DNA of 64,000 nt from Cenococcum geophilum. Its lineage: Eukaryota. The position numbers and the translations under genes are program-made. Positions 399 through 63,700 of the stretch are shown in pieces. Below the pieces are notes generated by a model. It ran no database searches. It had not been told where the DNA came from and was given only the letters and a program-made list of their open reading frames with translations. Numbering within the stretch: the stretch's first letter is position 1; each line of letters begins with the position of its first letter. The DNA lies in NCBI GenBank assembly GCA_050273025.1, contig CP158635.1, forward strand, positions 3,162,001 to 3,226,000. The letters are read 5' to 3'.

Positions 399-2992
399 TT
401 TCAGTTGAATGGAATGTAAGCAATGCCCCTGTGTACACATCAAGGTGTGACAAAGACGAACGAGGGTGTGTGCCTGAGCAGAGACGAAAGGGGCAGGGAG
501 GATGGGCGACCCATATAAATGGAGAAGGATTTGAATTTTTATGTTAGAGACACGACAGCAACTCGTTCTCGAGGAGAGGGATGGCTGCCAAACCGACCTG
601 CTCCAGACAATAGCTGCATATAGTGTGGTCCTAGGAAAGCTAAAAAAATGTGCCCGGTGTGCACCAATCAATGAGCTGCATGCACGGACGGTAAGTTGTT
701 CTACCAGATCACATAGATCGGGAGAGGCTGAAAAGGAGGTAGTGGTTCGGGCTTAGGAGGAGGCTTTTTTGCAATCTGAGACTTGGAAGTAGGGTATTTG
801 GTAGGCTGTACAAGATCTATATTGTTGGATAAGCAGTTACGCACTGTACTAGTGGTTGATTTAATTCATGAAGTTATCTATTCTCATTTCTATGCGATAG
901 TGTTGATGTCGCGCACGAACCACAAAATATACTACCCCATCATTGCAGGGATAAAATGCGGGAAGAGAAGTGCCTGACTCGACCCCACAGTTGCTAATTT
1001 CCTAGATGAAGGGGGGATTTCTCTGATCTAAACCTGAAAAGCTGGTGGGTCTATTTGGAATGCTCTTCCACAAAGCCGTAATCCTTCAGCGCAGGGTATG
1101 GTCTGGCTTGGCACCTGCTGCTGCCACGTGGTTGGGCAGAGGCGACTGAGCCACGAGATTTGGCTGTTTTGGTCTGGCGACCTTGGAGGAAGCCTGACGT
1201 CGAGTAGCGCGGAGATTCCACGATATATGACTCGGAAACCGGAAAATCGTGCCCTGGTGCGTGTCCGTACCAGGCCAGTAAAATCTCCTACGTTTTCTTG
1301 CCAAGACGTTGGATACGCGAGCAGCGTGGAGTGCATCTCGTGTTTTTTAAGTCCATCGCTTGTCCAAGGAACAGGCGGTGGTCTGGTGCTGCAGAAAAAC
1401 TCTGGCCTTGCAGTCCATTAAGAAGTCGTCTCGAGGCGATGAGATACTTGATTTCCGCATCGAACTAAGCTTCCTCACTGTGGCCAAGTCGGCTCAGCCC
1501 CCAGGGTCCAAAGGAATCTTCGTCAAGTCCGCAACCTTTATTCGTAGCGTATTTTTCTAAGACACCTCAAAAAGTTAATATAATCAAATTTTGGCTATAT
1601 TAAAAGCCCCGAGGATTACAAAGTCGACAGCAAGACGCCGTCCTCATAAAATTACGATGGGACGGAAAATTCCAGATTAACCGAAGCGGGCTCAAACCGA
1701 ATACTACAGCATGTCCGGTAGTTAGCGTCTTCCTCGCGTAGCTACTTGCTCGGAAAACCCCACCTGGCCTGCTTCCCCGTCTTGGCAGTAAGCTTCTGAA
1801 GACCTCAACATCAAAATCAAATGAAGCTTTGAATTGTATGATGATTCGCCTGTATACAAAAAGCTTGTGGTGTTGTTCCTTGCTCCGATCGTTCCTACCA
1901 CTTAGTGGGCGCCAATTACTGCCTGAATTTGTTCAGGCATAGACGAAATTAAAAGATCTAGATCCTTAGGTATAATACAGTCCTATTCTTTGCGAATTGC
2001 TTTAACTGTTGCCTCCCTAGTTATTGGGCGTAGGCGACGCTTTGCGACACCTGAGGTAGTATTTCACGATAGCGAGCTGTCGCTGGTGCTGGGGGCTTCG
2101 ATTAATGCGTTAGAGGCTTAGAGGATCTAAAGAAGATTGGAGGACGTATTGTTTAGTAGTTCTAACTAGAGCTTTACCATGAGATCGATTCATGTACGGC
2201 TTTAAAACCTCGTATCTCCGCCAGCAGCAGCGAGGATGAGGTAATTCGGCAAGCTCCATTTGATGTTTGCAGCCAAGACGGAGTATATATATTTGAGGTT
2301 AGCGGTGGCTTGATCTAAAAACACTAACCACCGGACGTGCCTACATGCTGTACTTTCAAATCCACAAAACAAAGTGGTCCGGTTGTTGCTCGGTGCAGTT
2401 CCAGCAGTCGGAAGCTTCCGATAGTGTGCTTTTAAAGGCTTCGGCTTGCATGAGTCATCCCAGGTCACCCCGGGTTTGACAATTAATCGTTTGCTTGACC
2501 CCACAAGTCGCAGCTTCTCCGCAAGAGATAGCCAGCAGCAGTGAACAGCTGATGATATATTAGATACAGTCTGTAACTATAAGCAAGTGCATCTTCAAAA
2601 CTACGCGTTCGACATTAATTCCATCGAAATATAGGTTCCAAGGCATAAGTCTGGAGGTGCTGTAGTCATCAACACACTACACGCTTTTGAGAATATCAAA
2701 GTAACACCGGCACTAGACCTGATCTGTCATCACGCCTGATACGCTTAGATCATCGAATGTCCATCCTTGTATTACTTGTTCCCATATTGCGCCATCCTTG
2801 GAACACGCGTGCTTCGCGTCGCAGAATCGCCGTGAACGCCTCCATCCAAGCCCACCCTCTAGGCTCGGCACGGCAACTCCTGGGCCCGTAACGCCGGTCA
2901 CTAGGTCCCATTCTACAAATCGCTGCGTGGGTATTAATGTCAACGGATGATTACTTCAGGAATTGAAGCAAATGCCTGCGACGGTGCATTAT

Positions 2993-4487
2993 TTAGCCGG
3001 CGACTGCATTCTGGAGAGTCAGGCTCACTTCGCGATTCCCTTTTATTAACTCCTCTAGAAAACTGGCCGCTTCCATCAAAACATTACTCTTGCTCAAACC
3101 GCCGTTTCGCAGTTCGGGCACTAGATCGTGAAGCTCTTCGAAGCCATGCTTGATAAGATTTCGTCTTTTCTGCTCCGAAAGGATGTGATTGCTACGCTTT
3201 TGCTCTTCCGTTAGGTTCTCTCGCTGCGCTTTCTGGCTCGCCGACGAGGATTTCCTCTTCTTTCCAGAATTGTCATCTTGGGATGCTTTGCGAGCCTTGA
3301 TACCTCGTGATAGAGATTGGCTCTTACGTTGCACAGTCGATGTCTTGTCGTCGACCGACCCATCTCGCGGCCTTGATTGATGAGCGTGCTTGCTTTTCCG
3401 CCGCTTCTTTGCGGGCTGGGCACCGTTCTCTTCATCCTCGTCATCAGTGGTCCCGTCCTCGGATTGGTCAGCCTCATCACCGGCCAGAGGCATTAGCTCA
3501 ATAGGGAATCTGCGGAGTCTGCGGGGCGCTACCGGGCTCGATGGCTGGGTGCTTTCAACACTTGGAGCGACATCTTTAGTCGAGGGTTGTAGAATGTGTA
3601 GGTCGTGCATCAGTCGTCGTGTGACTGCATCCTCAGTATCTTGCGGCGATGAGACAATGTATCCTGTCGGGTTGAATGCGTTATCGGAACCGAAGGCGTA
3701 TGGTCTCTTCAGCCGCTGCCTATGACTTTCATCTTGCTGCATTTGTGGATGATGTTGCGCCATCTGCACAAACTGAGCAGCAATAGACGCGTCGATGGAG
3801 CCGTTTTCTGCGTGATTAGGCAGTAATGCCGCCAGCTGTTCTGGTAAGGGAGTATGTGAAGTGGGAACCGTTGGAGATTGAAAGAAATTTGAAGAGTGAG
3901 GACGAGGAGATGAGACAGTAGAATCAGGCAGAGGGTTGAGGTCGTACATGATGTTTTGGTTGGTATATGTCGCCTCAGGCGAAAGGTTGGCCGTTTGGCT
4001 TGACTGAGCGTTATTGAACAATGTAGAAGCAGCGCGTAAATCATCATCAGACGTTATATTTGACCTCCTTCGATTAGAATTGCCGGTAAAGCCATGATCA
4101 TCATGGAAGCCATGCAGTGAATGCGATGGATCTGGTACTGTGGTAGACACGCCGTGTATTGTTGGAGGCGGATCGAATGGCCAGTTAAAATCCGAGAGAC
4201 CATCTTTCGGGTGGAAGCCTGCATCTAAATTATAATCTTCAGTGTGGAAAGGATTTGTGTTGTTGAAAAAGTCTGCGAGTGACTGATTCTCGGTTTCACT
4301 CAGGAGAGGAGGGGCGCCAGTGAAGAAGGCTTCGGAAGACGCGGCGAAATCGCTCGCGCTGAAAGTGTCTACGAAGCATAAATGAGTTATCCTCAGTCAA
4401 GTTACATGACACCTATCAACCTCAGCGAGGCGCATACTTACAACCAAAGGGTGATGTATCTTTCGCAGCCAGATGTGAAGAGTCCAT
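2993..4487 (-). CDS. bHLH transcription factor (fungal INO4-like), ~473 aa, 2 exons
   Basis: Exon 1 4487-4442 (MDSSHLAAKDTSPFG), intron 4441-4369 (GTAAGT..TAG), exon 2 4368-2993; spliced length 1422 nt, in frame. C-terminal bHLH: LTEEQKRSNHILSEQKRRNLIKHGFEELHDLVPELRNGGLSKSNVL. Confidence 0.9.
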
Positions 4488-5989: not shown

Positions 5990-7819
5990 ATGGCCAGGAC
6001 TCAGAATGGTGGTCGACATATCCAACTCGTCAAGCCGTAAGTTCACCCTACCCCTTTCTCGAGTAGGTACTTTAGATCAGGTACATCGGATTTACCTGGA
6101 TGACCGATTGCAATCAGATGCCGAATGTGGGGGGTGTTGGCACTAATTCTAACATCTTCCCAGGCTTGCTAGGGCGTATCTCCTCGGGTATCTCTCGAGC
6201 ACGAGTCCAAGGATCGTCAGTGTGCTTGCTGCATTGGCGAGGCAAAAAATAAGCCCGGCAGTGGCGTTGCATCGGGTATGTTGTGTGGCACCTGGTAGAG
6301 ATGAAAATCCCTAATTTCCTCCTTTCTGTTACACTCCTCGCATCCCATTTCAGAGAACTTGTATCTTTCTTCATATCTTCTGATAGCCCCTTTACATCCC
6401 CGGATCCATCTTGGAGACTGACCGGTATGCGCAATCAAGCTATTCCAGGTTCTTCGTCAGGCCGCTGCCCTCAATCGCTTTCCCGCATTTTGCGGCATCT
6501 TAATCGGAGGTTCTACCTTACTCCAATTGCCCCTTAAACATATATTTATCGCACTCAACCAATTCCTTGGACGAAAGAAGTGGTCTATCGATGGGACTTC
6601 AATTGAAAGACTAGCGAAAGTTCTCGCTGCTCTCATCTCAGCTTCCATCAGCTTTACTCTATTGAACAGTAGGCCAGTCAGTCGCATTGAATTACAAGGC
6701 ACAACTTCAACCCAGGGAATACCAATTTCAGGTCCAAACAATGACCCATGTTCATTTAAAGAACCACCTGAAACCACTGCACGCTCTGACGCTCCCAGAC
6801 CGGCTATGCTACCGGCCTCTGCCTTGGCCGGCAGAACCATGGATCTTACTCTCTTCGCCGTAATTCGTGCGCTGGACGTACTTATCAGCGGTATGTGGGC
6901 ACGCACCACGTCCCGTAAAACTCGCTCTACTGCGACAATCTCTCGAAGCACTCCACCAATTCTATTCTGTCTCTCCGCCGCGACAATCATGCATGCCTGG
7001 TTCTACACCCCTTCAAGATTACCATCGACCTACAATCGCTGGATATCGACTGCTGCAGAACTAGACAACCGGCTTTTACTTGTATTGCGACATGCTCGTT
7101 ACGGCACTTTCACTTACGGTAAGGACACCGGTATGGCCCCACTACTTGCCTCCATGTGCAAAGACTACGGGCTTCCAGAGCAGTGGGGTGATCCTGCCAA
7201 AACAATCCCGGTCCCTTGCGAACTCGTGCACATGGGCTGCGGGAAGAACTGCGAGAAACACGCCCTAATACGCTTCTGGCGCGGGTGGGCCTTCGCAGCA
7301 CGAATGTACGCACCACTGCAGCTGCTCATGCTGCTCCGCGGCGCCCGAACCAAAGCACGAGGCCGCAGCAGTCCCTCGAAGCTAGCCATCACCTCCGACG
7401 CGCTGACGAAAGCCACGATCGACATGACGCGCAGCTCTGCCTTCCTGGGCGCTTTCATCGCCCTCTTCTACTACGGCGTGTGTCTCGCGCGCACGCGTCT
7501 CGGGCCTAAGCTCTTCTCGCCCACCACCATCAGCCCCCAGATGTGGGACAGCGGGCTGTGCGTGCTGGCTGGGTGCGCGCTATGCGGCTCCTCCATCCTG
7601 TTCGAACGGGAGCGCAAGCGGCTGGAAATCCTCTTCTTCGTGCTGCCGCGCGCCGCCGCGGTGTGGTTCCCGCGGCGCTACTTGAAAGAGCACAGGTGGA
7701 GGGAGCACGTCGCGTTTGCGCTCAGCACGGCCGTCGTGTTCACGGTCGCGCAGGAGCGGCCGGAGCGCGTGAGGGGCATGCTGGGGAGTGTTTTGCATGG
7801 AGTGCTGAGTCAGGGCTAA
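5990..7819 (+). CDS. TMEM135-like multi-pass membrane protein, ~512 aa, 3 exons
   Basis: Exons 5990-6036 (MARTQNGGRHIQLVKP), 6164-6275 (LARAYLLGYLSST...) and 6440-7819, with GT..AG introns; 1539 nt in frame. Motifs AGRTMDLTLFA, IMHAWFYTPSRLPSTYNRWI, PCELVH, RSSAFL, LFFVLPRA. Confidence 0.85.
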
Positions 7820-8376
7820 GGGCTAGGGCTAGGGTGAGGGCTTTAGCCACAAGGCCCGCCGGGTACCTGGTTGGCGGTTGATGCGGGGAATTTTCGGGTG
7901 GCGGCGGAAGCTTTTGAAACAGAGGTGCCTTGAGCCCTCTGACTGTGTTGGTGGAAGGGCTTTTTTGGTGCGGGGTGAGTGATGACGACGTCTGCTCAGC
8001 TTGAGGTGTTTGATTTGCGGTGCAGAATGTGTCGCATATTTCGTCTGCTCGTGATTTTGGTAGAGCCAGGACTTGTTGGCATTGTCTTCTAAGACGCTTT
8101 TGGGCCCTGTATACTGGCCGGCTGTTGGAATGTTGTAATTTGGTAACCTTAGCCTTCGCTGCATGTATTAAGCTCTGTATTTAGCTAAGAGTTCAAGGCG
8201 TGAAAGCTTGGTTGATCAAATATTTAGGTATGACCATAGGCCCAGAAGATTATAATCCTTATAATCAGTTTAGGGACATGAGTCGGGTGCATCGGGCCTT
8301 TTGCAGGTCCTTGGAGGCTTGTTCGAAGTACTTCTTGCACAGCAATGGCTCGACGAATCACTCACGATATCCTCTC

Positions 8377-14558: not shown

Positions 14559-16218
14559 TCACATATACGTCCCATCATAAACCAGATCCCACAACGGCCG
14601 CCCCTTCCTCCCCAGCTGCCCCCCAACCTCATTCCTCAACGGCCACTCACTCGCCGGCGCCTGATGCGCATACCACGCCCCTCCCCCATCATGCACCCCG
14701 CCATCGTAACCCCCCGCACTGCCGTACGAAGGGTCGTAGTCCTCGACTACGCATGCTCGTTCGAAAACGGATCCCGCAGCCCAGCATACCCCCCTGTCCC
14801 ACCCATTCATTCGCCGCCGTGTACCCCGCATGCGCATTCCCGAACCGCGATAGCCCAAACGCTGGGCTGAGCGGGGAGAGCGGCAAGGCGGCAGTCCCGC
14901 CAGCAACACCACCACCAGACCCCCGCCTCCGCCCTTCCCCTCCCGCCCCTAGCCCCGCCACGGCAACCGTCCACACCCCCGTCCCCAAGTGACAGCCTCC
15001 GCGGACTCCTCGCCGGCACAACCGGCAGCGCACCCCCCTCCCTCATCCCATTTCCCTTCCCCGGACCCTCAGGCACCGACCCCAAACTCCCAAAACTGCC
15101 CCGCGACCTCGAACCGCTAGGATGGTACGGCACTACGGGCGGCGGTGGCGGCGGGGGGTTATGCTCGTAACTCGGCCCGCCAATCCCACTACCATGCAAT
15201 CCGGAGTCGTCGTACGCGCGGTGCGAGAGCGGTTCGCCGGCGCCGCCACGCAGCGGGTGGTGTGGGGACGTGCCCATCGCCATCGCCATCGCCATCGCCA
15301 TCCCTAGATTGTGGTCGCGGTCGTGGGAGGTAGAGTGCCCGTGCCGGGGTGTCGTGGGCAGGAATTCCGGGGTGGGAGGGCGGCTTGCGCGGGGGTCTTG
15401 GTAGTTGTGGCGATGGTGGCGGCGGCGGAGGAGGAGACAGCATGCGAGGAGGGTGGCGGCGAGGGCGAGACGGCGAGGAGGATGCCGACGCCTAGGCCGA
15501 TTTTGGTGCTGACGGAGAGGCTGGGGAGGGGGGATTGGAGGGTGTGTTAGTGGAGGTTGGGGCCGCGATGGGGATGGCGATGGAGCCGGCTGAGACGGTT
15601 ACGAGGGTTGTGATGTATTTTGTTGTTGTTGGGGCGGCGGGAGATGGGGATGAGGAGGCGGATGAGGATCCGGATGAGGAAGGGGAAGAAGCCTGGGTTG
15701 TCGTGGGCTGTGTCGCGGAGTTTTTTAGTGTCGGTCTTTCAATTGTACGAGATATGAATGGGGAGAGCGGACATACCGAAGCAGAGGCGGTTGACGGGCC
15801 GTATTGCTGGACCAGGTAACTCTGGATATCGGTGGGCAAGGCGGTAAACCAGGCCAGCTTCGACCCGCCTAGGAATTCTAACATGAGGATTTGGGAGACG
15901 GCGGGAATCTTGGTTGCGGCCACCTCGCGGAGAGACTCGGGATGCTGTGAGGAGCACATCTGCCAGAGACTCTGAGAGAGAATTAGTATAATTATTCAAA
16001 TGGGAAATTACTATAGAAGACAAAATATAGATATTCAATGAAGAAGACGACCAAACCAAAGGTACATACGGATCAATGGCACTTTGCTTCTTCCTCAAAT
16101 CCACCCTTGCTGGTCTAGGAGCAGGTGTAATGGTTGGTTTTGGTGTTGCAAGACCATGATCTCAATAGAAGCCCCTCGACTCGGTAATTGCCATGAAGCG
16201 GAAGATGGAGGAGTGCAT
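14559..16218 (-). pseudogene. Frameshifted single-pass membrane protein gene (Ser/Thr-rich ectodomain, TM helix, Pro/Gly-rich tail)
   Basis: Coherent protein pieces spread over different frames: MHSSIFRF...FY* TPKPTITPAPR; SLADVLLTA / PESLREVAATKIPAVSQIL...WFTALPTDIQSYL; a Ser/Thr-rich stretch; LSVSTKIGLGVGILLAV / LAATLLACCLLLRRR; SRPPTPEF. One early stop and several frameshifts; these could also be assembly errors in GC-rich runs. Confidence 0.55.
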
Positions 16219-29943: not shown

Positions 29944-32900
29944 TATAAGAGGCCAGTCTAACCGAAACGTATAATTATCTAATTAATAGTATAGAATAAG
30001 AGTTACTGGTAAGTAGAAGATAAGTTAAGGTAGAACAATCTTTATAAATAAAGGATAATGCTTTCTAACCTCTTCTATTTAGAGACTAATTGCTAGTTCT
30101 TCTCTAGAGGGGAACTAGCTTCCTATATATTTCTTCTAAGACGCTAATAAAACCTTTCGCCCCTAACCTGTCTAACTGTATCTTCTAGAATATAGATAGG
30201 ATATATATAAAACCTTCTACCGTCTTATTAGATATGTACCTTCTAGGGGATTCTATTATAATTGCCTCCCCTTTTAGGGTCTTAGTCCTCTAAGACTTCG
30301 CCTTTACTAAGCTTTTATAGAGTTCCGGCTAAAACCACTAGGGAAACCCTTAGTGGAAAGGTATTTTATAATGCAACTTATTGCCAGCTCTTTACTAGCG
30401 CAGAACTTTACTTTATCTTTTATTCCTCTGCTCTTTTTCTACCCTAGCTCCTTATAGTGCTTTTATAATAGGATTTTAATAATAGTAATAAAAATTTGGT
30501 GGGATTTACCTCTCTAATTTTAAGAATTTGTTATAAATAGATCTGGAGGTTATCTGGTGTAACGTGTTAACTAACTACTATCCCTATTTACCTAAATAGG
30601 CTTTAATAATAACGTCTTTTATTTTAATTTCTTTTTATTTATAAGTTGTTGCCTTTTACTCGTCCTTTTATTAATAACACTATTTGTCTTATTCTTAAAT
30701 AGGCTGTTTTTATTATATCTTGCCTTTTAGCTTCTATATCTTTAGCCGTACTTCTATTACTACCTTATTATCTTTTCTTAACGCGTCTATAAGTAATAGG
30801 ATTCCCTCCTTATCTCTTATAACAATACTAACTTCTTAAAGTATCCTCTTATAATAGCTTGTGGTCCTTCTACGCGTCCCTAAACCGGCGGTAGTATTAT
30901 TCCTCTCCTAGTAACGCCCTAGATAGTATCTGTTACTCCTATAGCAGTTTCCCTAAAATGCTATTATTGCTACGTTTATGCTCTTATGTAGGATCCTTCC
31001 TACGTTTGTAAAATGCCTTGCTCTAGTAAAAATAAATTTAAGTGCTCCTATTATTGCAGTAGGAGAAAGACCTATATCCTAGTATTTCCTATTCCGTCTT
31101 ATTTTAGATTTTACTAATTATACTAGATCCCCGCTGTTTATATATATAAGACTTATAGGCTCTAACGCGCTATCTAAGATTTCTACTAATATCCTAATAA
31201 TAATAGGCGGGGATAGAAGGTGTTTTCCCTTGCTTATAAACTCTTTAATTTAATAAGGGTTTCCACTACTGTAGAGACGTAACGTTTTTAAATATATAGT
31301 ATTTAGGAGCGCATATGCGAATAGCTTATCTTTATTAATAATAATATTTATACTCTTACGCGGGCTACTCTGGCTAGGTAAGTTTCTCTAGTAACTTACT
31401 TAGGAATTATGCTAAATCCCTTAGCTAATATCTCTCTAATCCCTATTTAGACGCTAATTTGGAACCTAGGGATACTAAAAATAGTAATAAAGGTTAAGAT
31501 AAACGTTCTCCTTACTAGTTTCCTACCTATGCTAGTCCTTCTAGTACCCGTTATTTTAAGAAGAATATTAGTAGAAGTACTAATAATTCTAGGGATAGAG
31601 GAGCTGATAATACTGTTAATAATAACGTTAAGATAGAAGAAGAGGCTCCTGTTACTATTGTTAGTATTTAAGTTATTATTTAGCTCTTTTCTTCTTCTTA
31701 TAGAATAGCTTTATATAGTGCTTCTTGGGTTCCTCTAGGATGCCCTATTATTAGGAATTAACTTTATACTTTGGGGATGCCTTTATTCTAAGCTTTGGTG
31801 ACAATCTATATAAATATAGTGCACTACTATAATCCCCATATGTGATAAACAGGTAGTGTTTCTATAGGTGCCTTATAATTCCTTAAAATTTCTAATTCTT
31901 TATAGGCTGTCCTTTTGCTCCTCTTTATACTACTAACCTTACTATATATCTCCGGTGCTAGGCTAAATACTCTCCTTTTATCCTTAGGGGATCTTTCTAA
32001 ATCCCTAAGGCCACTTCTTATAGTACTACTACTCCTTTTTAGATAGCGTCTTCTTTAAACAGTATCCCTAATAGTTCTCCTATAGATCCTTATAGGCTTC
32101 CCCTTATAGAATTCTAGGATCCCTGTTATAATAGCGATACGTTTCCGTTCTTAATACCTATACTTAATCCTATAGTTTTAATTTACGGGGTCTTCCCTAT
32201 TACTTTACCTATAGTATATCCGGAACTATTTTTAAATCTTTACCTTTGGTTCTTAGGAAGGTTTTAATTACGGTATTATATCCTAGCTAAAGGTACTTCT
32301 TAGGTTCCTAACTGTTATACGCCTAAAAGTATCCTTCCTAATAAACTAAAAATTCGCGCTTTTTCTGGCGCTATCTTTAGTCTAAAATATCTTCTATATT
32401 CTATTTTAGTTCCCTATTAATTTCGCTAGGTGGGGGCGGTTCTGTACCATCTCTTCTCTAGTATAGCTTTAGTAAGGAAACATAAAATATAAAATATATT
32501 AGATAAGATTTTAGTAATTCTAATTTATAGGCTTAGTTTCCTTTAATTTTCCTAACTATCTTAAAGGGTCCGAGCTATTAGTAATCTAGCTTCTTCTTAA
32601 TGCGTTTTATTTAAATATTTTTTATAAATAGTAAGACTTCATCTCCTATCTTAAATTCTTTTGGTATATATTTTTTGTTATAGTACCTTTTTTATATAGC
32701 CCGGGCGTCTAGTAAGTGCTTTTTAAGTTCCTCTCTGCGAATTCTTATTTACTTAGTTCTTTTGGACGCTACTAGTGCCTCTTTTTTAGGAATAATATCC
32801 TTAACATTTTAGGGGGTATTTACTTTTACCCCAAACAATGCTTTATAAGGGGTCATTTTTATACTACTATAGATGCTTATGTTATACACGTACTACGCTA

Positions 32901-35900
32901 GAGCTAACTATAATGTCTAATTATCCTATTAATAATTAATATAGTAGCGGAGGTAGTGTTCTAATAACGTATTTAGACGCTCTGTTTGCCTATTTATTTA
33001 CGGGTAAAAGGCAGTACTTATCCTTTGCCGTATTTTTAATAAGAGATAGAATAAAGACTAAAATGCACTATTAAATACGGTACCTCTATTAGATATAATT
33101 CCCCTTAGCGTGCTAAATAAGAGCCACCGTTTTAAAAACAGGTCTACTAGTTCTATTGCCGTAATTGTTATTATAATAGTAAAGTATCCTAAAAACTTTA
33201 TATACCTGTTAATAATTACTAGGATAGCGTTAGTAACCTCTCTAGTTCTTATCTTAGTAGGGGGTAAGCCTATAATAAAATCTATTATTAATTCTAATAT
33301 AGGTCCCTATAGAATAAGAAGCACTAATAACTCGCCATATAGGCGATACCTAGATATCTATATCCTTTAGCACGTATTACACCTTAATATATAGTCCTTA
33401 ACCTCTTTAGACATTTTATCCTAAAAGTATTTCCTTTAAACGGCCTTAAGGGTTCTATTAGCACCGTAGTAACCCCTAAAAGGGTTATTATAGAAGACCT
33501 TTAGAATTTCGTCTTAAATTGCTTAGTCCTTTAGGATATATATAGCACCCTTAAAGCGTAACAGACCCTTTTAGTCTTACTACTATAGCTTCTTAGTAAC
33601 TCCGGCTAAGTTAGTCTTTACTATATCTTTCTACCTCTCCCCAAAGGCGAAGGCGTCTCTTTATTAAGCTTAAAGAAGAAAATCCGGAAAGGTTTTATGT
33701 AGATTACTTACTTTTATTTTACTTGCTGCTATTATAAACTTAAGGCGTAGTACGAGACGTTTTAAACTATTAGTGCTAGTAGATTCTTTTACCGTTATAT
33801 AGTGTGCTATATTACGGATAGACATCTTACCTATCCCCCTTAAATCCGAAAACTTGCAGCTAATACGCCGTTAAGTTAAAGGTGCTGTAATACCTCTAGC
33901 ACATTCTATAGAATTCTCGCTAATTTTAGGGTACGCTAACTTTATAACGTCTGCTTAGTTTATAACCTAGTTTATAACTATATCCTACAGCTCTATAATT
34001 ATATTGCTTTATAGCTGTATTACTAGGACCTCTACCCTACTATAAAATTCTATAGTTTTAGGGAAAGAGTCTTCTTTCTTCCTAAGCAAATTTTGTAATG
34101 TAGGGATTATTTCCCCTATGCTGTTCTAGATTCTCCCTATTTCGTAATCTAGACGTCTTAATAACCTATTAGTAGGATTTGTCTTTCCTAGGTAGTATAT
34201 AATCTTAAAATTATACTATAATAGTGCCTCTACCCGCCTAGCTTGTCGACCGCTTAATACCTTTATAGTTATAAAGTATTTTAGGTTATTATAGTCTATA
34301 AGGACTTTAATAGGGTAATTGCTTCCTATATAATAATATCGCTAGTGCTTTATTACTGTAACTATCGCGAGTAACTCCTAGTCGTGCGTTATATAACGCT
34401 ATTTTATAGGGGTTATTTTTCTTAACTAAAACGCCATAGGATGCCATTTTCCGTCTTTTAATTAAGATATAATTACCCCTAGGGTAAAGCCGGATGTATC
34501 TGTTTTAAGATATATACGTAGCTCCTAGCAGAAGTGTATTAGGATAGGCGCCAATATAAATAAATCCTTTAACTGGTCTATAGCCTACTTAGTAGCTTCC
34601 CTAAATATAAAGGGTTCTAACTTCTTGCTATTCTTAGATCCTTTTAGTAGATTAGTAATTAAGATTATTATTTATAAGTAGTAAATAATGAACGTTTAGT
34701 AGAAGCTCGCCGTGCCTAAGAAAACCTATACTTCTCTAAATATTATAGGGTAGGGCTATTTTCTAATAGCGTCTACCCAACTTTTCTCTATTAATACTCC
34801 GTTGACGCTAATAATAAAGCCTAAAAAATTAATGCTAGTAGTATAGAACGTGCACTTTTTTAGGTTTATATAGAGCTTATATTCCCGTAGTCTTTCTAGT
34901 ACTATTTATACGTGGTGCGTATATGCTTTATAGTCGTTAGAGTAGACTATAATATCATTAAGGTAGACTATATATATCGTATCTAATAAGCCCGATAATG
35001 CCTTATTAATATAGGCCTAAAATATTACTAGTGCGTTAGTGAGCCCGAATGGTATTATTAGGTACTTAAAGTGGCCGTACTGTGTTTAGAACGCCGTTTT
35101 CCACTTATTACTAGCTTTAATCCAGATTTAATAGTATATATCTTTTAGATCCAATTTTATAAATATCTTTACGCCTAATAGCCTATTAATAAGCTCCCTT
35201 ATTAAGGGTAATAGGTAGCAATTCTTTATAGTAATCTTATTTAGTACCTAATAGTTAATACAGAGGCAAAGGGTCCCGTTCTTCTTAGGTATAAATATAA
35301 TCGGTACCCCTACTAGGCTTATAGAGGGCCAAATCTATCCTCTCTAAAGATTGTCCACTATATATTAACGTAGTACCGCTAGTTTATTTTCTAATAGGTT
35401 ATATAGTGGTCCAAAAGGAGGTTATTTATCCCCTATATCTATCTTATACTTAACTAATATAGGGTTAGGTAAGGTTTATATAGCCTCTTTACTAAAAATA
35501 TCCTCTAAGTCTATATATTCCTATAGAATCTCTAGTTCCTTAACTGCGTATAGCCAGATATCCGAAAATAAATATCCCGTGTCCCCGTTCTTAGTGTTAA
35601 GAGTAGTATATATAGTATATACCCACCCTTCTTCTTATATATAGTTTAAGAAAGTCTCTTAATCTTTAACTATAATACGCGGTTAAGACTTCCGATGTTA
35701 ATATAAGGCTAAAGGCCAATTAATATCCGGATTAACTTGGTGAAGCTATAGGTATCCTAAAACAAGATTATACCCCTTAATTTCTGCGGTATAGAAGCGT
35801 ATTTTCTGCGTATCCTATAGACTATCGCGGTCCTAGCTGGCTATAGAAAAAGCCTATTCTCTATAGTATGGAATCTAGTAACCTTTAATGCTTTAAACGG

Positions 35901-37627
35901 TATGTACCTGCGAGTCACTAAGGTCTAAATCCAATTTTTTTTACTAGTAATTAAGAAATAAACCCTATAGTTACGCCGCTATCTATAAGGCAGTCTCGCG
36001 TTGCCTATTTATTATTAACTTAAATAGAGACAGGAATAACTATACAACAGCTTACTCCCTCCTTCTCTTACTAGCCTAGTGTAAGGGAGTGAAGATCTAT
36101 TAGGCTCTCTCTTTTCCCAATTAATCTGATTCTTATTTCTTTTGCCAGCAGAAGCGCTTTATATAACCCTTTTTACCGCAGTTATAATAAACGCGTAACT
36201 CTTAGTTCCACTTATTTAGATTAGGTTTTTGCCTATTATTATTCTAGGGCTAACTAGTATTGCTCTAGGGCTTTAAAGCCTACTTACGTTATTTTTCCGT
36301 AGAGTGGTTGGGTTGGAATCTACCCCTATTATTAAAGCTAGGTCTAGTCCTATACTCTTTATTATTAGTGTTTTATTCCTTTCGCTTGCCTAGATAGTCT
36401 CTTTTAGTATTCTTAATTTAAGTAGCTTTAGAGATAAGCTTTTCTTAAGAGGTAGGAATTTCGCCCTTCTCCTATATAGCCTATTAAATCTTAGGTCATA
36501 ACTTAGCAAGTAGCTAGTAAAGTTGTATAGTATTATCCTATAGGTCTAAGTAGGGTATATTATCTTTTAGTTCTTCCAAGTAGTTTATAAACTAGACTAT
36601 ACTCTAGCCTTCTCGCTATTTGGCGTTGTAGTATTACTAGTTATAATCTATCTCTTAATTAGTAGGGTCTTAGACCTAATTAACTAACTAGGACTTAAGT
36701 TCGCTAAATTTAAGGGGTATAGTAAGTTTCTTCTTATAGCATATTTATAAACTCTTAACAGTGCTATATAAGAAGGTAGAAGTAATTAGTGTCTAATTAT
36801 ACTTATTAGAGTAACGTTTCGGATCTAGCCGAAACTTAGTTTCGCATTAACGGATAAAACAATTATAGTTCTGGAGACTATTATTATAGTACTTATTAGG
36901 TTCCTTTGTGCGAAATTTAGGGTTTTCTAACATTATAGTATAGTATAGCGTTATCCCTTTGAGTCCGCTTTGTGTCTAGGGTGTCTATACTTCCCCTAAT
37001 TGTCCTTATAATTGTTCTTAGTAGTCTTAATATACTTGTCTTAATCGTATCTCCAACTCCTTTGTTTTTTATAGGGTCTCGTATAGTAACCGCTCCGATA
37101 ACTCCCTAGCGGTAATTATTCTTAAGGGTCTTATAAGGTTAGATAGACCAGCCGTGGCTTCTTTATAGGAAGAGGGAATGCGCTCCTTTAGGGAGACTCT
37201 TTAAGCCTCTTACGGTAGGGGCGTCGTTTTAGGGGGTAAGGAGGTATAGCCCGTTATCGTTAATTAATAGCCGTATGTTCCTTCCGTAAAGGATTAAGAG
37301 CAATTAGAATTATAAGAGGCTAGTTTAACCGGAACGTATAATTATCTAATTAACAGTATAGAATAAGAGTTACCGGTAAGTAGAAGATAAGTTAAGGTAG
37401 AATAATCTTTATAAATAAAGGATAATGCTTTCTAACCTCTTCTATTTAGAGACTAATTGCTAGTTCTTTTCTAGAGGGGAACTAGGTTCCTATATATTTC
37501 TTCTAAGACGCTAGTAAAACCTTTTGCCCTTAACCTATCTAACTATATCTTCTGGAATATAGATAGGATATAGATAAAACCTCCTACCGTCTTATTAGAT
37601 ATGTACCTCCCAGGGGATTCCGTTACA
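29944..37627 (-). mobile_element. Ty3/Gypsy LTR retrotransposon D (7684 bp), inserted in Copia C, with a ~2 kb extra region 3' of pol
   Basis: 317-bp LTRs at 29944-30260 and 37311-37627. TSD GTGGG/GTAGG (one G>A). Gag knuckle YYNCGKKGYIKRFC (~36190), protease LIDSG (~35985), RT IVYLNDI (~34960), integrase, chromodomain (~32400-32280). Confidence 0.9.
30854..31671 (+). pseudogene. RIPed spliced antisense gene inside Gypsy D: Cys6 zinc-cluster-like protein with acidic C-terminus (~241 aa)
   Basis: Exons 30854-31081, 31127-31377 and 31425-31671 (726 nt, in frame). Introns 31082-31126 (GTATTT..TACTAAT..CTAG) and 31378-31424 (GTAAGT..GCTAAA..TTAG). Literal translation KCYYCYVYALM*DPSYVCKMPCSSKNKFKCSYYCSRRKTYIL|IPAV. 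All internal stops are TAA/TAG, as expected from RIP of CAA/CAG/TGG. The start assumes ATG>ATA. Confidence 0.65.
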
Positions 37628-60756: not shown

Positions 60757-63700
60757 CTACGCCTTGGACTTCATCCATCCCCCACCCCTTTCTCTGCCCC
60801 TCCCACTCTTATCCACTCGCCCTCCCCTCGTTTTCTGAACCCCGAGACCCCTCCTCTGCGCCTTAAACCCCCCTCTTCCCCTCTGCCCTCCCGTTTTCTC
60901 CTGCCTCATCGCCTTCATCTTCTCGCCCACCTCCTCCTCATCCACCTCCATCTCATCATCATCTTTCCGCCTGCGATTACTGAATTTCAGCTTCCCCCGC
61001 TGCCCGCGCTGCGCCGCATCCCGTCCTTTGATCGCATCCACATACGCATTAATACCGCCCTCCAGCGTGCCATCGCCGGGCCCGCTGCCATCGCCCATCA
61101 AGATATCGCCATCGTCCTCGGCCTCGGAGTCCTCCGGCCCGCCGAGAATAAGCTTGCCGTCGAGGTTGACCTTCGCCTTCGACTTCTTCGCCGGGACCGC
61201 CTTCTGCTTGAGTGGTTTCGTTGACGAGATATTGCCCAACGCGCGTCGGGAGAGGAGGTCGAGCGGCTCGTCCTCGTCCTCGACGATGTACGTCTTGCTC
61301 TCCTTCCGGTCGGCCTTGCCGCCCTTCTTGCGCCCCATGACCTCCTCGTCCGAGACGTCGCTGCCGTCGCTCTCGTCGTCGTCGTCGTTGCTGCCATATA
61401 CAGCCTCGTCGAACTCGGACTCGAAGTTGCTCTTGTGCTTCGGCGCGGCGTCCGCCTCGTCCTCATCCTCCTCGCCGCCTTCCTTCTTTCTCTTCTTCCT
61501 CTCCCGCGTCTTCCGGATGTTGGCGATGAGCTTGCGGTCTTCCTCCGGACACGCCTTCTCGACGACGTCGACGCCGAAGCGGCGGATCATGCGCTCGAGG
61601 ATGTGCTTCACCTTGGCCTTGAAGTGGGCCTTGTGCTCGTGGCTCCAGACCATCAGGTTCGGGACCAGGGCTTTGAGGCGCGGCAGCATGAGGTCCTGCG
61701 GCAGCGAGATGACCGAGACCTTGACGAAGCCAAGCACCGAGCGGACGATCTCGCGGTTCGGGTTCTGGATGAATATGTCCATGAGCTCGAGCAGGTTCTG
61801 CACTGTCTCCGTCGATATGCGCGATTGGAAATGGTACAGGATTCTCGTGACGGCGGTGATCGTGGCGGAGATCATGTGCGGTGTGCTTCCTGCCAGACCT
61901 GCCGAGACCATCGTGAAGTACTCTTCTAGCGTCGCTGGCACGGATGGCGTGTCGGATGACATATTTGGAACTTTTGCGTTAACGACGGTGCCACCGAGCG
62001 CCATCTTCTCCCCCATGGAAACTAGGAGGTCGAAGGCAGCTGTGCGCGCTTTCTCGTTGACTTCTTTGGCTGAGATGACAACTTCTGGGAGGATTGAGGG
62101 TATGAAGTGGAGGTCGCTGTTGGGGATGAATTCAACGATCTGAGCGATAGCAGCCAGCCGGTCGCGGCGGGAGGGTGCCGATGCTTTATCCGAACTTTGT
62201 AGTAAGAGCTGTTGTAGCTCAGTATTTCGTTCTTCCAGCGCAGCTTTGCCGATGGGTGACTCGGCGAGACGGGGAATGAGCTTGTAAGCTTTCTTCTGCA
62301 GCTGCGGATCATCGTCCTTATTAACGATGAGAGCAGCCATTTGAAACAGGGTGGGGAAACTATCGCGAGGGAGGTAGATGGAGATTGTAATGACAAGGTC
62401 CATGAGTGTGTGGCTCATTGGTGGCATTTTATCTTTCGTTTTCTCTTGCTTTTGCTTATCGGCTTGTGTTTGGGGACCACCCTCACCAAGGGAGGACTCG
62501 AGGTGGGTCGTAACTCGTACGAAGGTTTCCATGAGTTCCTGTGAGAGATGTTACTACCCGTCTAGGAATAGATAAGAGATTCTACTGGCTTACCTTCTCC
62601 GGTGTGATGCTCAGATAAGCATTTATACAGCGAAGGATGATCCCTCTGTATTGCGGTAGAGTCTGACTGTAGACGTTGAATAGCACTGCTAGTAGATTGC
62701 TAGCGAATCCTGCCAAGTGATCAAGATTATTCTTCGCATCAGCTTTGGATACTTTTGACTGAGCGACAAGATTTTCTTCTTCGTCAAATAACTCTATTAT
62801 GGCTTTGTTAGAGTCTACGAGGTTTTGCAGTGCCCTACATAGATCTGTCCTTAGATCCGCCTGCCCATATAGCAAGTTAGATAATAGTTCCGCAAAGCTC
62901 TGATCGAAAGCCTAGAACAATGTCAGCGAGTTCGGCAAAAGCGCAAAAATGTTCGACCTACTTCAGTAAGATCAAGCGGCAAATCACAGTAACCGGGCAG
63001 AATAGACCAAACTTGCTGTACAACGGTCTCAAACACCTTGATCTCCATAGTTTTCTCTGCATCCCCGTGCTCGAGAACTCGCTGAAAAATTGCCTCGCTT
63101 AAGGGAACCATATCTGATCTAAAATGTGCCAGGCGCGTATTGCTTACGGAGTCTCGGAGAATTGGCAGCATCCAAACCCGTCCAGGGTGGCCTGGAGCGG
63201 GTTTCGGAAGGTTAAGCGGTAAAATCTTGAGGACGTTATCTGGACCCATGGCCCGTATCGCTTTTGCAAGGACTGCATCGGCTTCTTTCTTTCCCGCGAA
63301 GGACTCGTTTCCTCGCAGTTCCCCAATGGTCCTGACCACGTTTGAGAGAAGCGGGGCTGAACGCCATCGCAACGCTTCGAATATTGCACCGAGAACATTG
63401 AAGACCTCCATCCAGGCGGCTTGGAACTTTATGCTCAAGAGATCCGTAGCAGTCTTCGCTAGCTTCTCCAGGACTTTCTCGTCAAATATTGAAGGGTCCA
63501 GCAGGACGTTGTCTGGTATGCAATTTGCCATGAACGAAATGAGACATTCTGAAGCAGAAATACGGATGTTGTGAGAAGGAGAACTAAGGAAGTTGGATAT
63601 CATAGCAAATAAATTAGGAAGGTTTTGGAAAGTCTCATCAGGGTTGATCTGTGCTGAGACATCGTAACCTCTGGATAAGACAGCTATCCATGGGGGAAGC

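Follow-up and report, generated by a model that had tools for sequence, protein, structure and literature searches.

Element D and the copies used to study it

The region analysed here is a stretch of 64,000 nt from Cenococcum geophilum (contig CP158635.1, positions 3,162,001 to 3,226,000; hereafter the window), in which the long terminal repeat (LTR) retrotransposon element D lies on the minus strand and probably carries the remains of a spliced gene on the plus strand, between the end of pol and the 3′ LTR. Element D is bounded by the innermost LTR pair of the region (29944-30253 and 37311-37620; 310 bases, 94.2 % identity). For the 3′ LTR (29944..30260, minus strand) the BLAST pair covers 29944-30253 and the end at about 30260 was set by eye; the polypurine tract directly upstream of it (30265..30275, minus strand) was also read by eye, and the 5′ LTR (37311..37620, minus strand) follows from the comparison of the LTR pair. 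A single minus-strand frame holds the pol domains identified by Pfam, RVT_1 (E 1e-26), RT_RNaseH, Integrase_H2C2 and SH3_Tf2-1, and the C-terminus of pol is formed by a chromodomain (32254..32403, minus strand). The Chromo model matched all five translations scanned, the window copy with 17.2 bits, below the cut-off of 25.1, and copy L015 with 25.6 bits. By its LTR pair, the order reverse transcriptase-RNase H-integrase and the C-terminal chromodomain, element D is a Ty3/Gypsy chromovirus degraded by repeat-induced point mutation (RIP). The distance from the chromodomain to the 3′ LTR is about 2.0 kb (32254 to ~30260), in line with the ~2 kb reported in an earlier note that was made from the letters of the window alone and that proposed the antisense gene.

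Using a purine/pyrimidine search pattern taken from 31206-31275 we recovered 36 loci from one metagenome. Together with the window they make up the 37 copies on which the copy counts below are based, aligned over window positions 30200-35280 and summarised in a consensus of 5,082 nt. All 36 metagenome copies are RIP-damaged (GC content 0.30-0.39; identity 81-91 % per aligned stretch, mostly 84-89 %), and in all of them the 3′ region is joined to pol. The family is present in very high copy number, as 10,103 and 7,623 contigs from two DNA runs were placed on the region with deep coverage; differences between the X1 DNA run and the window comprise 463 transition places and 25 transversion places. 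In two copies we noticed insertions within exon 1 of the antisense gene, namely L030 (~1059-3009, ~1.95 kb, at about window 31016) and L018 (~4286-4480, ~0.2 kb, at about 30990).

To undo RIP in the consensus (de-RIPping), C or G was taken wherever some copies keep C or G. In a control on pol this lowered the number of stops in the coding frame from 67 to 15-21 over 3,013 nt, while the other frames retained 38-84. Because the pol frame itself retains 15-21 stops, RIP is partly saturated, and even a true gene retains about one stop per 50-75 codons after de-RIPping. The finding that all stops are TAA or TAG is powerless as a test, as RIP could formally have produced any stop codon. Counting stops along intron-containing paths has just as little power, both on a raw copy and on the consensus, in which paths antisense to pol come down to 0-4 stops.

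A conserved block between the chromodomain and the 3′ LTR

As a gauge of selection during the active period of the family we used the changes that are beyond the reach of RIP, i.e. transversions and indels. The stretch between the LTR and the chromodomain proved to be very uneven in this respect. Next to the LTR there is a hypervariable spacer (30261..30778), in which the subfamilies differ and which may be the site of an antisense promoter; positions 30254-30780 contain 58.8 shared transversions and 43.6 indel columns per kb. It is followed by a conserved block that holds the proposed antisense gene (30779..31807) and shows only four shared transversions and two shared 1-nt indels. The corresponding values are 4.3 and 1.1 per kb for 30781-31710, 25.0 and 4.5 per kb for 31711-32150, and 5.1-5.2 and 0 per kb for pol. 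The flanks are thus 5-13 times more variable than the block, and the conservation of the block is about that of pol. The block region was found in all 37 copies examined.

The four shared transversions (31285, 31492, 31586 and 31697) are too few to choose the strand. The indels common to at least three copies are a 1-nt deletion at 31085 (four copies) and a 1-nt insertion after 30813 (three copies), and both fall within putative introns, intron 1 and the 5′ untranslated region (5′UTR) intron, respectively. Two diverged relatives have gaps of two residues and one residue, both in frame. The three-base periodicity reaches its maximum at 31399-31698 (chi-square 60.6, p 3e-11), a level not attained in any part of pol, whereas 30200-30700 shows no periodicity. 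From the pol-like constraint, the confinement of the 1-nt indels to putative introns and the periodicity it follows that the block was functional and at least partly coding.

The copies fall into two subfamilies (21 and 15 of the 37), split at 14 linked transversions within 30620-30778 and differing at only two transversions between 30779 and 31807. The markers 31285, 31586 and 31808 follow this split only partly, so the lineages recombined, and a clean two-lineage estimate of the ratio of nonsynonymous to synonymous substitution rates (dN/dS) is unobtainable for this reason.

Exons, start codon and stop codons of the probable antisense gene

The gene model on the plus strand consists of three exons. 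Exon 1 (30854..31081), defined on the codon counts of the 37 copies, would start with an ATG in the context ATAATGG and encode a Pro/Ala/Ser/Thr-rich stretch followed by a Cys-rich basic motif. Exon 2 (31127..31377) is weakly predicted to be helical, with helices at a predicted local distance difference test score (pLDDT) of about 50-60. Exon 3 (31425..31671) would encode a polar, acidic, low-complexity tail ending with TAA, and its base composition (G1 0.46, T3 0.52, T2 0.11) is that of a disordered tail; it lies in the stretch of strongest periodicity. The three exons can be joined at these coordinates, which are those of the earlier note. Together they make up 726 in-frame bases, interrupted by 14 internal stops and closed by the terminal one, all of them TAA or TAG. 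In the window copy alone this path is no better than chance. As a control we took 168 windows of 818 nt from the RIP block; given no more than two GT..AG introns, 157 of them can be read through with 14 stops or fewer, and the same target stretch of the window copy allows an alternative path with only seven stops.

The other copies were more informative. At the position of the start codon (30854), 25 copies have ATG, 11 including the window have ATA and one has ACG. The earlier note had read the internal stops as products of RIP, and this holds for 12 of the 14, at which two or more other copies have C or G, resulting in a codon for Gln or Arg; 31175 and 31495 are stops throughout. The reverting stops are distributed as three of three in exon 1 (CAG/CAA in 4-6 copies each), seven of eight in exon 2 and two of three in exon 3. 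At the same threshold, 86 % of stops are resolved in the plus-strand model, 70 % in the pol frame and ~30-40 % in the three non-coding plus-strand frames of pol. The stops found in every copy are those at 31115 and 31124 (intron 1), 31379 (donor of intron 2), 31175 and 31495 (exons) and 31669, the terminal stop, which is present in 35 of 35 copies (34 TAA, one TAG). RIP has left the gene dead in the window as well as in every one of the 34 gap-free copies, and each of these sequences carries 10-15 internal stops.

Putative introns

The best preserved splice signals belong to intron 2 (31378..31424, plus strand, 47 nt; GTAAGT or GTGAGT, CTAAC, TAG), which was recognised in the 37-copy alignment and by a motif scan of the consensus. 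Its GTRAGT donor is kept in 35 of 37 copies (32 GTAAGT, three GTGAGT), the branch site CTAAC in 34 and the acceptor TAG in 35. With a GTRAGT donor, a CTRAC branch site, a YAG acceptor and a length in the range of ~45-60 nt, it has the features of a fungal spliceosomal intron. The strict motif of such introns occurs only once in the consensus on either strand, and this occurrence is intron 2; the background is three occurrences in 70 kb of the RIP block of the window, both strands counted. Intron 2 also supplies the frame change on which the earlier note had relied, as it joins the end of the exon-2 frame to the strongly periodic frame of exon 3. In the window copy the branch site is spoiled (CTAAC to CTAAA) by a private A at 31416, where the other 36 copies and nearly all contigs of the two DNA runs have C. 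This change is a transversion and hence not a product of RIP.

The situation was less clear for the other two introns. Putative intron 1 (31082..31126, plus strand, 45 nt), delimited in the 37-copy alignment, has a weak donor GTATTT, a CTAAT branch site and a TAG acceptor. The donor is exact in 30 of 37 copies and is present with a 1-nt deletion in four more, and the acceptor reads TAG in 24 copies and TAA in 13. The length of this intron is a multiple of three and the only effect of its removal is the loss of two stops that are present in all copies. A further putative intron in the 5′UTR (30789..30840, plus strand; ATAAGY...CTAAC...TAG) was read from the family consensus; it is a possible intron, with G as its first base in one of 36 copies, and the TATAAG at its start could alternatively be a TATA box.

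Coding strand

Stop counts and codon statistics were compared between the strands. The plus-strand frame contains fewer stops than the minus-strand frame in all 23 gap-free copies of 924 nt (14-19 versus 18-32). A host codon model trained on 13 non-overlapping open reading frames (ORFs) from the GC-normal flanks gave log-likelihood ratios of +1.5, +7.0 and +4.6 for exons 1, 2 and 3 at de-RIP threshold 2. Over three thresholds, eight of the nine exon values were positive, and pol chunks were positive in 71 of 72 tests; as a yardstick, the means for true coding chunks are +8.0 and +13.2, and antisense shadows are expected to be negative. The third-position bias is strong, with A3 at 8 % in exon 1. 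The host-trained codon statistics modestly favour the plus strand. The same strand is favoured by the ATG, by intron 2, by the position of the non-reverting stops and of the 1-nt indels, and by the base composition of exon 3.

Cysteine motif and homology searches

The earlier note had described six cysteines arranged like a zinc cluster. Five of them were recovered (30959, 31007 weakly, 31043, 31052 and 31073), and the second, at 30968, turned out to be a product of RIP. The TGC codons of the window at 30968, 31019 and 31055 all derive from CGC codons for Arg, and 30968 still reads CGC in 13 copies. Two cysteines that were missing from the earlier list were added, at 30962 and 30971. Across the 37 copies, TGY is kept at 30959 in 24, at 30962 in seven, at 30971 in nine, at 31007 in two, at 31043 in 19, at 31052 in 11 and at 31073 in eight. 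The corrected pattern is C-C-X2-C-X11-C-X11-C-X2-C-X6-C, followed by the basic run RSRRK. The spacing consensus of the Zn(II)2Cys6 family is C-X2-C-X6-C-X5-12-C-X2-C-X6-8-C. Membership in this family (PF00172), which the earlier note had suggested, found no support, as the first half has a spacing of X11 instead of X6 and one of the noted cysteines is a RIP artefact. By its predicted sequence, the product is not a canonical Zn2Cys6 protein.

Searches with zinc-cluster Pfam models gave no match in 30 translations at E up to 5 and none in eight more at E up to 10, nor was PF12511 (DUF3716) matched; all these 38 translations are RIP-damaged. In most copies RIP turns the Cys codons into Tyr codons; damaged copies still gave a match to Chromo, a domain just as short. 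The three plus-strand frames of 30254-32600 matched nothing in Pfam at E up to 1, exons 1-2 as read from the window copy found nothing in a word-based search of proteins, and a profile search of the copies against PDB gave no matches at E up to 10. A profile of 30 plus-strand translations searched against 1.84 billion representatives recovered four proteins, all of them short metagenome ORF fragments of the same family, for which a cluster look-up gave no useful names. One of them, P0001, spans the gene from the Met to a stop equivalent to 31115 and contains a two-residue in-frame gap. A search of the ESM Atlas with P0001 gave no usable match, and a scan of IMG/VR with the integrase-chromodomain part gave 26 pattern matches, none of which was confirmed. 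The earlier note had considered that the gene might be a captured host gene; there was no sign of this, as the profile search found no homologue outside the family.

Surroundings of element D

Element D lies in an AT-rich block of 35 kb (22-57 kb of the window, GC about 0.28-0.42) with GC-normal flanks, and no ORF of at least 100 codons was found throughout 22-57 kb. Comparison of the window with itself showed that the block is a stack of nested LTR-element insertions. Other direct-repeat pairs with 88-95 % identity bracket or flank element D (23051-23273/54658-54880, 27629-27786/46813-46970 and 47035-47227/53188-53380). Searches by tblastn with the reconstructed products of element D against the window and all loci matched copies of the D family only, and none of the other nested elements. 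Behind the chromodomain, at the end of pol, we noticed an AT-hook-like motif GRPRK (32182-32196, minus strand) in three of five translations, the other two having GRPYK. Three 1-kb stretches of the flanks (7001-8000, 15001-16000 and 61001-62000) have a GC content of 0.61-0.63, and long ORFs overlap there on both strands.

Weighing of the gene model and its alternatives

In our reading, the ancestor of the element D family probably had a spliced antisense gene with some 241 codons, which is now dead. Several observations speak against it. The stops at 31175 (exon 2) and 31495 (exon 3) are kept in all copies. If the gene existed, they must be CAA codons converted to TAA by saturated RIP, an account that is plausible but unproven, since the pol frame itself keeps 13-19 such stops per 983 codons. 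Neither the 37 copies nor the profile searches provided an intact copy or relative, for which reason dN/dS could not be computed. The donor of intron 1 does not have the usual G at +5 and the T found there cannot be derived from G by RIP. The gene model depends on this weak intron because exon 2 contains no ATG. De-RIPping also over-corrects, and at threshold 1 the single ACG copy masked the ATG. Regarding the protein, the cysteine at 31007 rests on two of the 37 copies and is on neither of the fragments that cover it (P0001 and P0004), and AlphaFold2 predictions of 30 RIP-damaged translations had a mean pLDDT of only 39.6. The host-codon ratios of the exons are modest, below those of typical coding sequence, with exon 1 near zero. 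Finally, in the X21 RNA run, of which 12 % was read, 19 reads were placed, all of them partial fits less than 95 % alike and none with a spliced joint; their coverage of 31082-31126 and 31378-31424 was zero. X22, a run presumed to be RNA, yielded three contigs. Neither run is taken as evidence for or against expression.

As a separate observation on X21, the first mates were placed only on the minus strand over the LTR and its inner edge (29944-30351) and only on the plus strand in exon 3 (31474-31779) and pol (32698-32901). This sorting hints at opposite transcripts, on 19 poorly fitting reads from a library whose strandedness is not established.

The remaining points against the gene on the plus strand concern the opposite strand. 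The minus-strand frame in the phase of pol is stop-free in the de-RIPped consensus for 178 codons (31177..31710, read from 31710 to 31177) and for a further 93 codons from 31098 to 30820. The first and perhaps the second of these could be a third ORF of the element, expressed from a spliced or re-initiated sub-genomic message, and the plus-strand gene would then be its antisense shadow. The natural 130-aa ORF of the diverged copy P0005 matches the same frame with a one-residue gap, and the shared transversion at 31492 is synonymous in it. A codon model trained on pol, inconclusive as strand composition dominates it, leaned to the minus strand and was positive for its frames in 30782-31114. Because the minus-strand frame is equally open, openness alone does not choose the strand. 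Yet the 178 codons contain no conserved ATG, and they are separated from pol by ~440 nt of variable sequence (25 shared transversions/kb) with about ten stops in the pol frame. Inspection by eye showed no acceptor-like site upstream of the 178 codons. The 1-nt deletion at 31085 (four copies) would shift the frame of the 93-codon part, and a minus-strand reading of 31426-31671 needs A1 of 51 % with A2 of only 11 %. The higher number of stops in all 23 copies compared and the host-codon ratios likewise favour the plus strand, and the minus-strand profile was unmatched among proteins of 313-2000 residues, which is weak evidence. We therefore consider coding on the minus strand to be unlikely.

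It is also rather unlikely, if slightly less so, that the block is a part of the element conserved without coding for protein, serving for instance as a signal for the export or packaging of RNA or as the unit of an antisense non-coding transcript, with the open frames as by-products of composition. The openness of both strands does suggest a compositional cause, neither a homologue nor a confident fold was found, and antisense non-coding transcripts of retroelements are known (PMC7264820). A non-coding block, however, fits poorly with a three-base periodicity far above that of pol, the strong third-position bias in exon 1, a conserved ATG, stops that cannot be reverted lying in introns, indels of the diverged relatives in multiples of three and shared 1-nt indels confined to the putative introns. 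That the gene model is nothing more than a chance path through AT-rich, RIP-mutated DNA seems very improbable. The single window copy would by itself allow this view, as most control windows are equally open and a path with fewer stops exists in it, but the block is as conserved as pol throughout the family, other copies still have the ATG and the codons for Gln, Arg and Cys, and the canonical intron is unique in the consensus.

We thus keep the antisense spliced gene as the preferred reading. Of the interpretation in the earlier note, the conserved antisense module, its ATG, the canonical intron, the RIP-made stops and a Cys-rich basic motif stand, and the assignment to Zn(II)2Cys6 proteins does not. 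The presence in all 37 copies together with the pol-like conservation separates this gene from a one-off transduction.

According to this model, the ancestor of the chromovirus family would have carried, in the interval from the chromodomain to the 3′ LTR, an accessory gene antisense to gag-pol. This gene would run from the ATG at 30854 through exon 1, the 45-nt intron, exon 2, the 47-nt intron and exon 3 to the TAA at 31669. The predicted product starts with an N-terminus rich in Pro, Ala, Ser and Thr, followed by a basic cluster with six or seven Cys, a probably helical middle and a polar acidic tail. Introns lying antisense to the genomic RNA are not spliced out of it, and therefore survive reverse transcription. 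The gene may have been driven by a promoter of its own, located in the variable 0.5 kb beside the 3′ LTR or in the LTR itself, and the protein may have been a nuclear regulator of the element that bound zinc and nucleic acid, a kind of role proposed for other antisense accessory genes of retroelements.

Comparison with known antisense genes of retroelements

The closest precedent is brtn, an antisense gene carried by the Boty elements of Botrytis and Sclerotinia (PMC7264820, PMC8365987). Its source is cited as a 2011 paper (Virology 417:248), and it is described in PMC8365987, PMC7264820 and PMC4227169, so that the likeness is one of description. As far as these descriptions go, Boty is likewise an ascomycete Ty3/Gypsy element with a chromodomain, and brtn is likewise an extra gene antisense to gag-pol, located between pol and the 3′ LTR and carried family-wide. 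We found no fungal case of an antisense accessory gene other than Boty in the open-access literature. Accessory genes of retrotransposons in RIP-mutated repeats escape ordinary ORF and gene finders, and for this reason brtn, the one published case, may greatly understate how common they are in fungi. The comparison of many RIP-damaged copies offers a way to recover such a hidden gene from dead copies alone, by three tests: where non-RIP changes and indels are tolerated, which stops revert in other copies and which splice signals have been preserved. Should the protein regulate the element or interfere with silencing by the host, it would bear on the expansion of such families into AT-rich repeat compartments, a link that is conjectural.

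In plants, antisense ORFs between pol and the 3′ LTR (aORF-3R) are described for maize Grande (gene23), rice RIRE2, Silene Retand and PvRetro13 (PMC7264820, PMC11963269). Those of Retand encode a probable DNA-binding TRP28 domain (PMC11963269), and the role proposed for the class in these sources is nuclear or DNA-binding regulation, the function not being established (PMC7264820, PMC11963269). The element D gene is antisense to gag-pol and lies between pol and the 3′ LTR, and, its coding nature being an inference, it quite probably belongs to this class. As described there, the plant ORFs resemble it in position, orientation, presence in most copies and a conservation like that of the element's own genes, and differ in occurring mostly in non-chromovirus lineages and in much longer spacers (2.9-6.6 kb in Retand). 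The element D gene further differs from them in the lack of a TRP28 domain, in its small size and in being interrupted by short fungal introns.

HBZ of human T-cell leukaemia virus type 1 (HTLV-1) is a spliced basic leucine zipper (bZIP) protein. In PMC11963269 and PMC7264820 it is reported to be nuclear and expressed from an antisense promoter in the 3′ LTR. It resembles the predicted element D gene in lying antisense near the 3′ LTR and in encoding a small protein of the nuclear-regulator type that combines a basic region with a helical part, and it differs in belonging to a human retrovirus, in having no sequence relationship and in having a bZIP in place of the Cys cluster. Compared with Gal4-type Zn(II)2Cys6 proteins (PF00172), the predicted product shares at least six Cys in a basic context, a second half C-X2-C-X6-C with Arg/Lys that fits, and a probably helical region and acidic tail after the cluster. 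The first half is C-X2-C-X11-C in element D as opposed to C-X2-C-X6-C, and no Pfam or PDB match was obtained.

A broader proposal, which we put forward only tentatively and regard as doubtful, is that the element D gene represents one lineage of a widespread and barely studied class of spliced antisense genes in ascomycete LTR retrotransposons. Their products would be small six-Cys, helix-tailed nuclear regulators, analogous in function to HBZ and controlling the transcription or silencing of the element. The version found in the element D family would have diverged from brtn and from Pfam models so far that it is no longer recognisable. Whatever the extent of such a class, this kind of passenger gene is already known from plants and from Boty, and the gene of element D adds another member to it.

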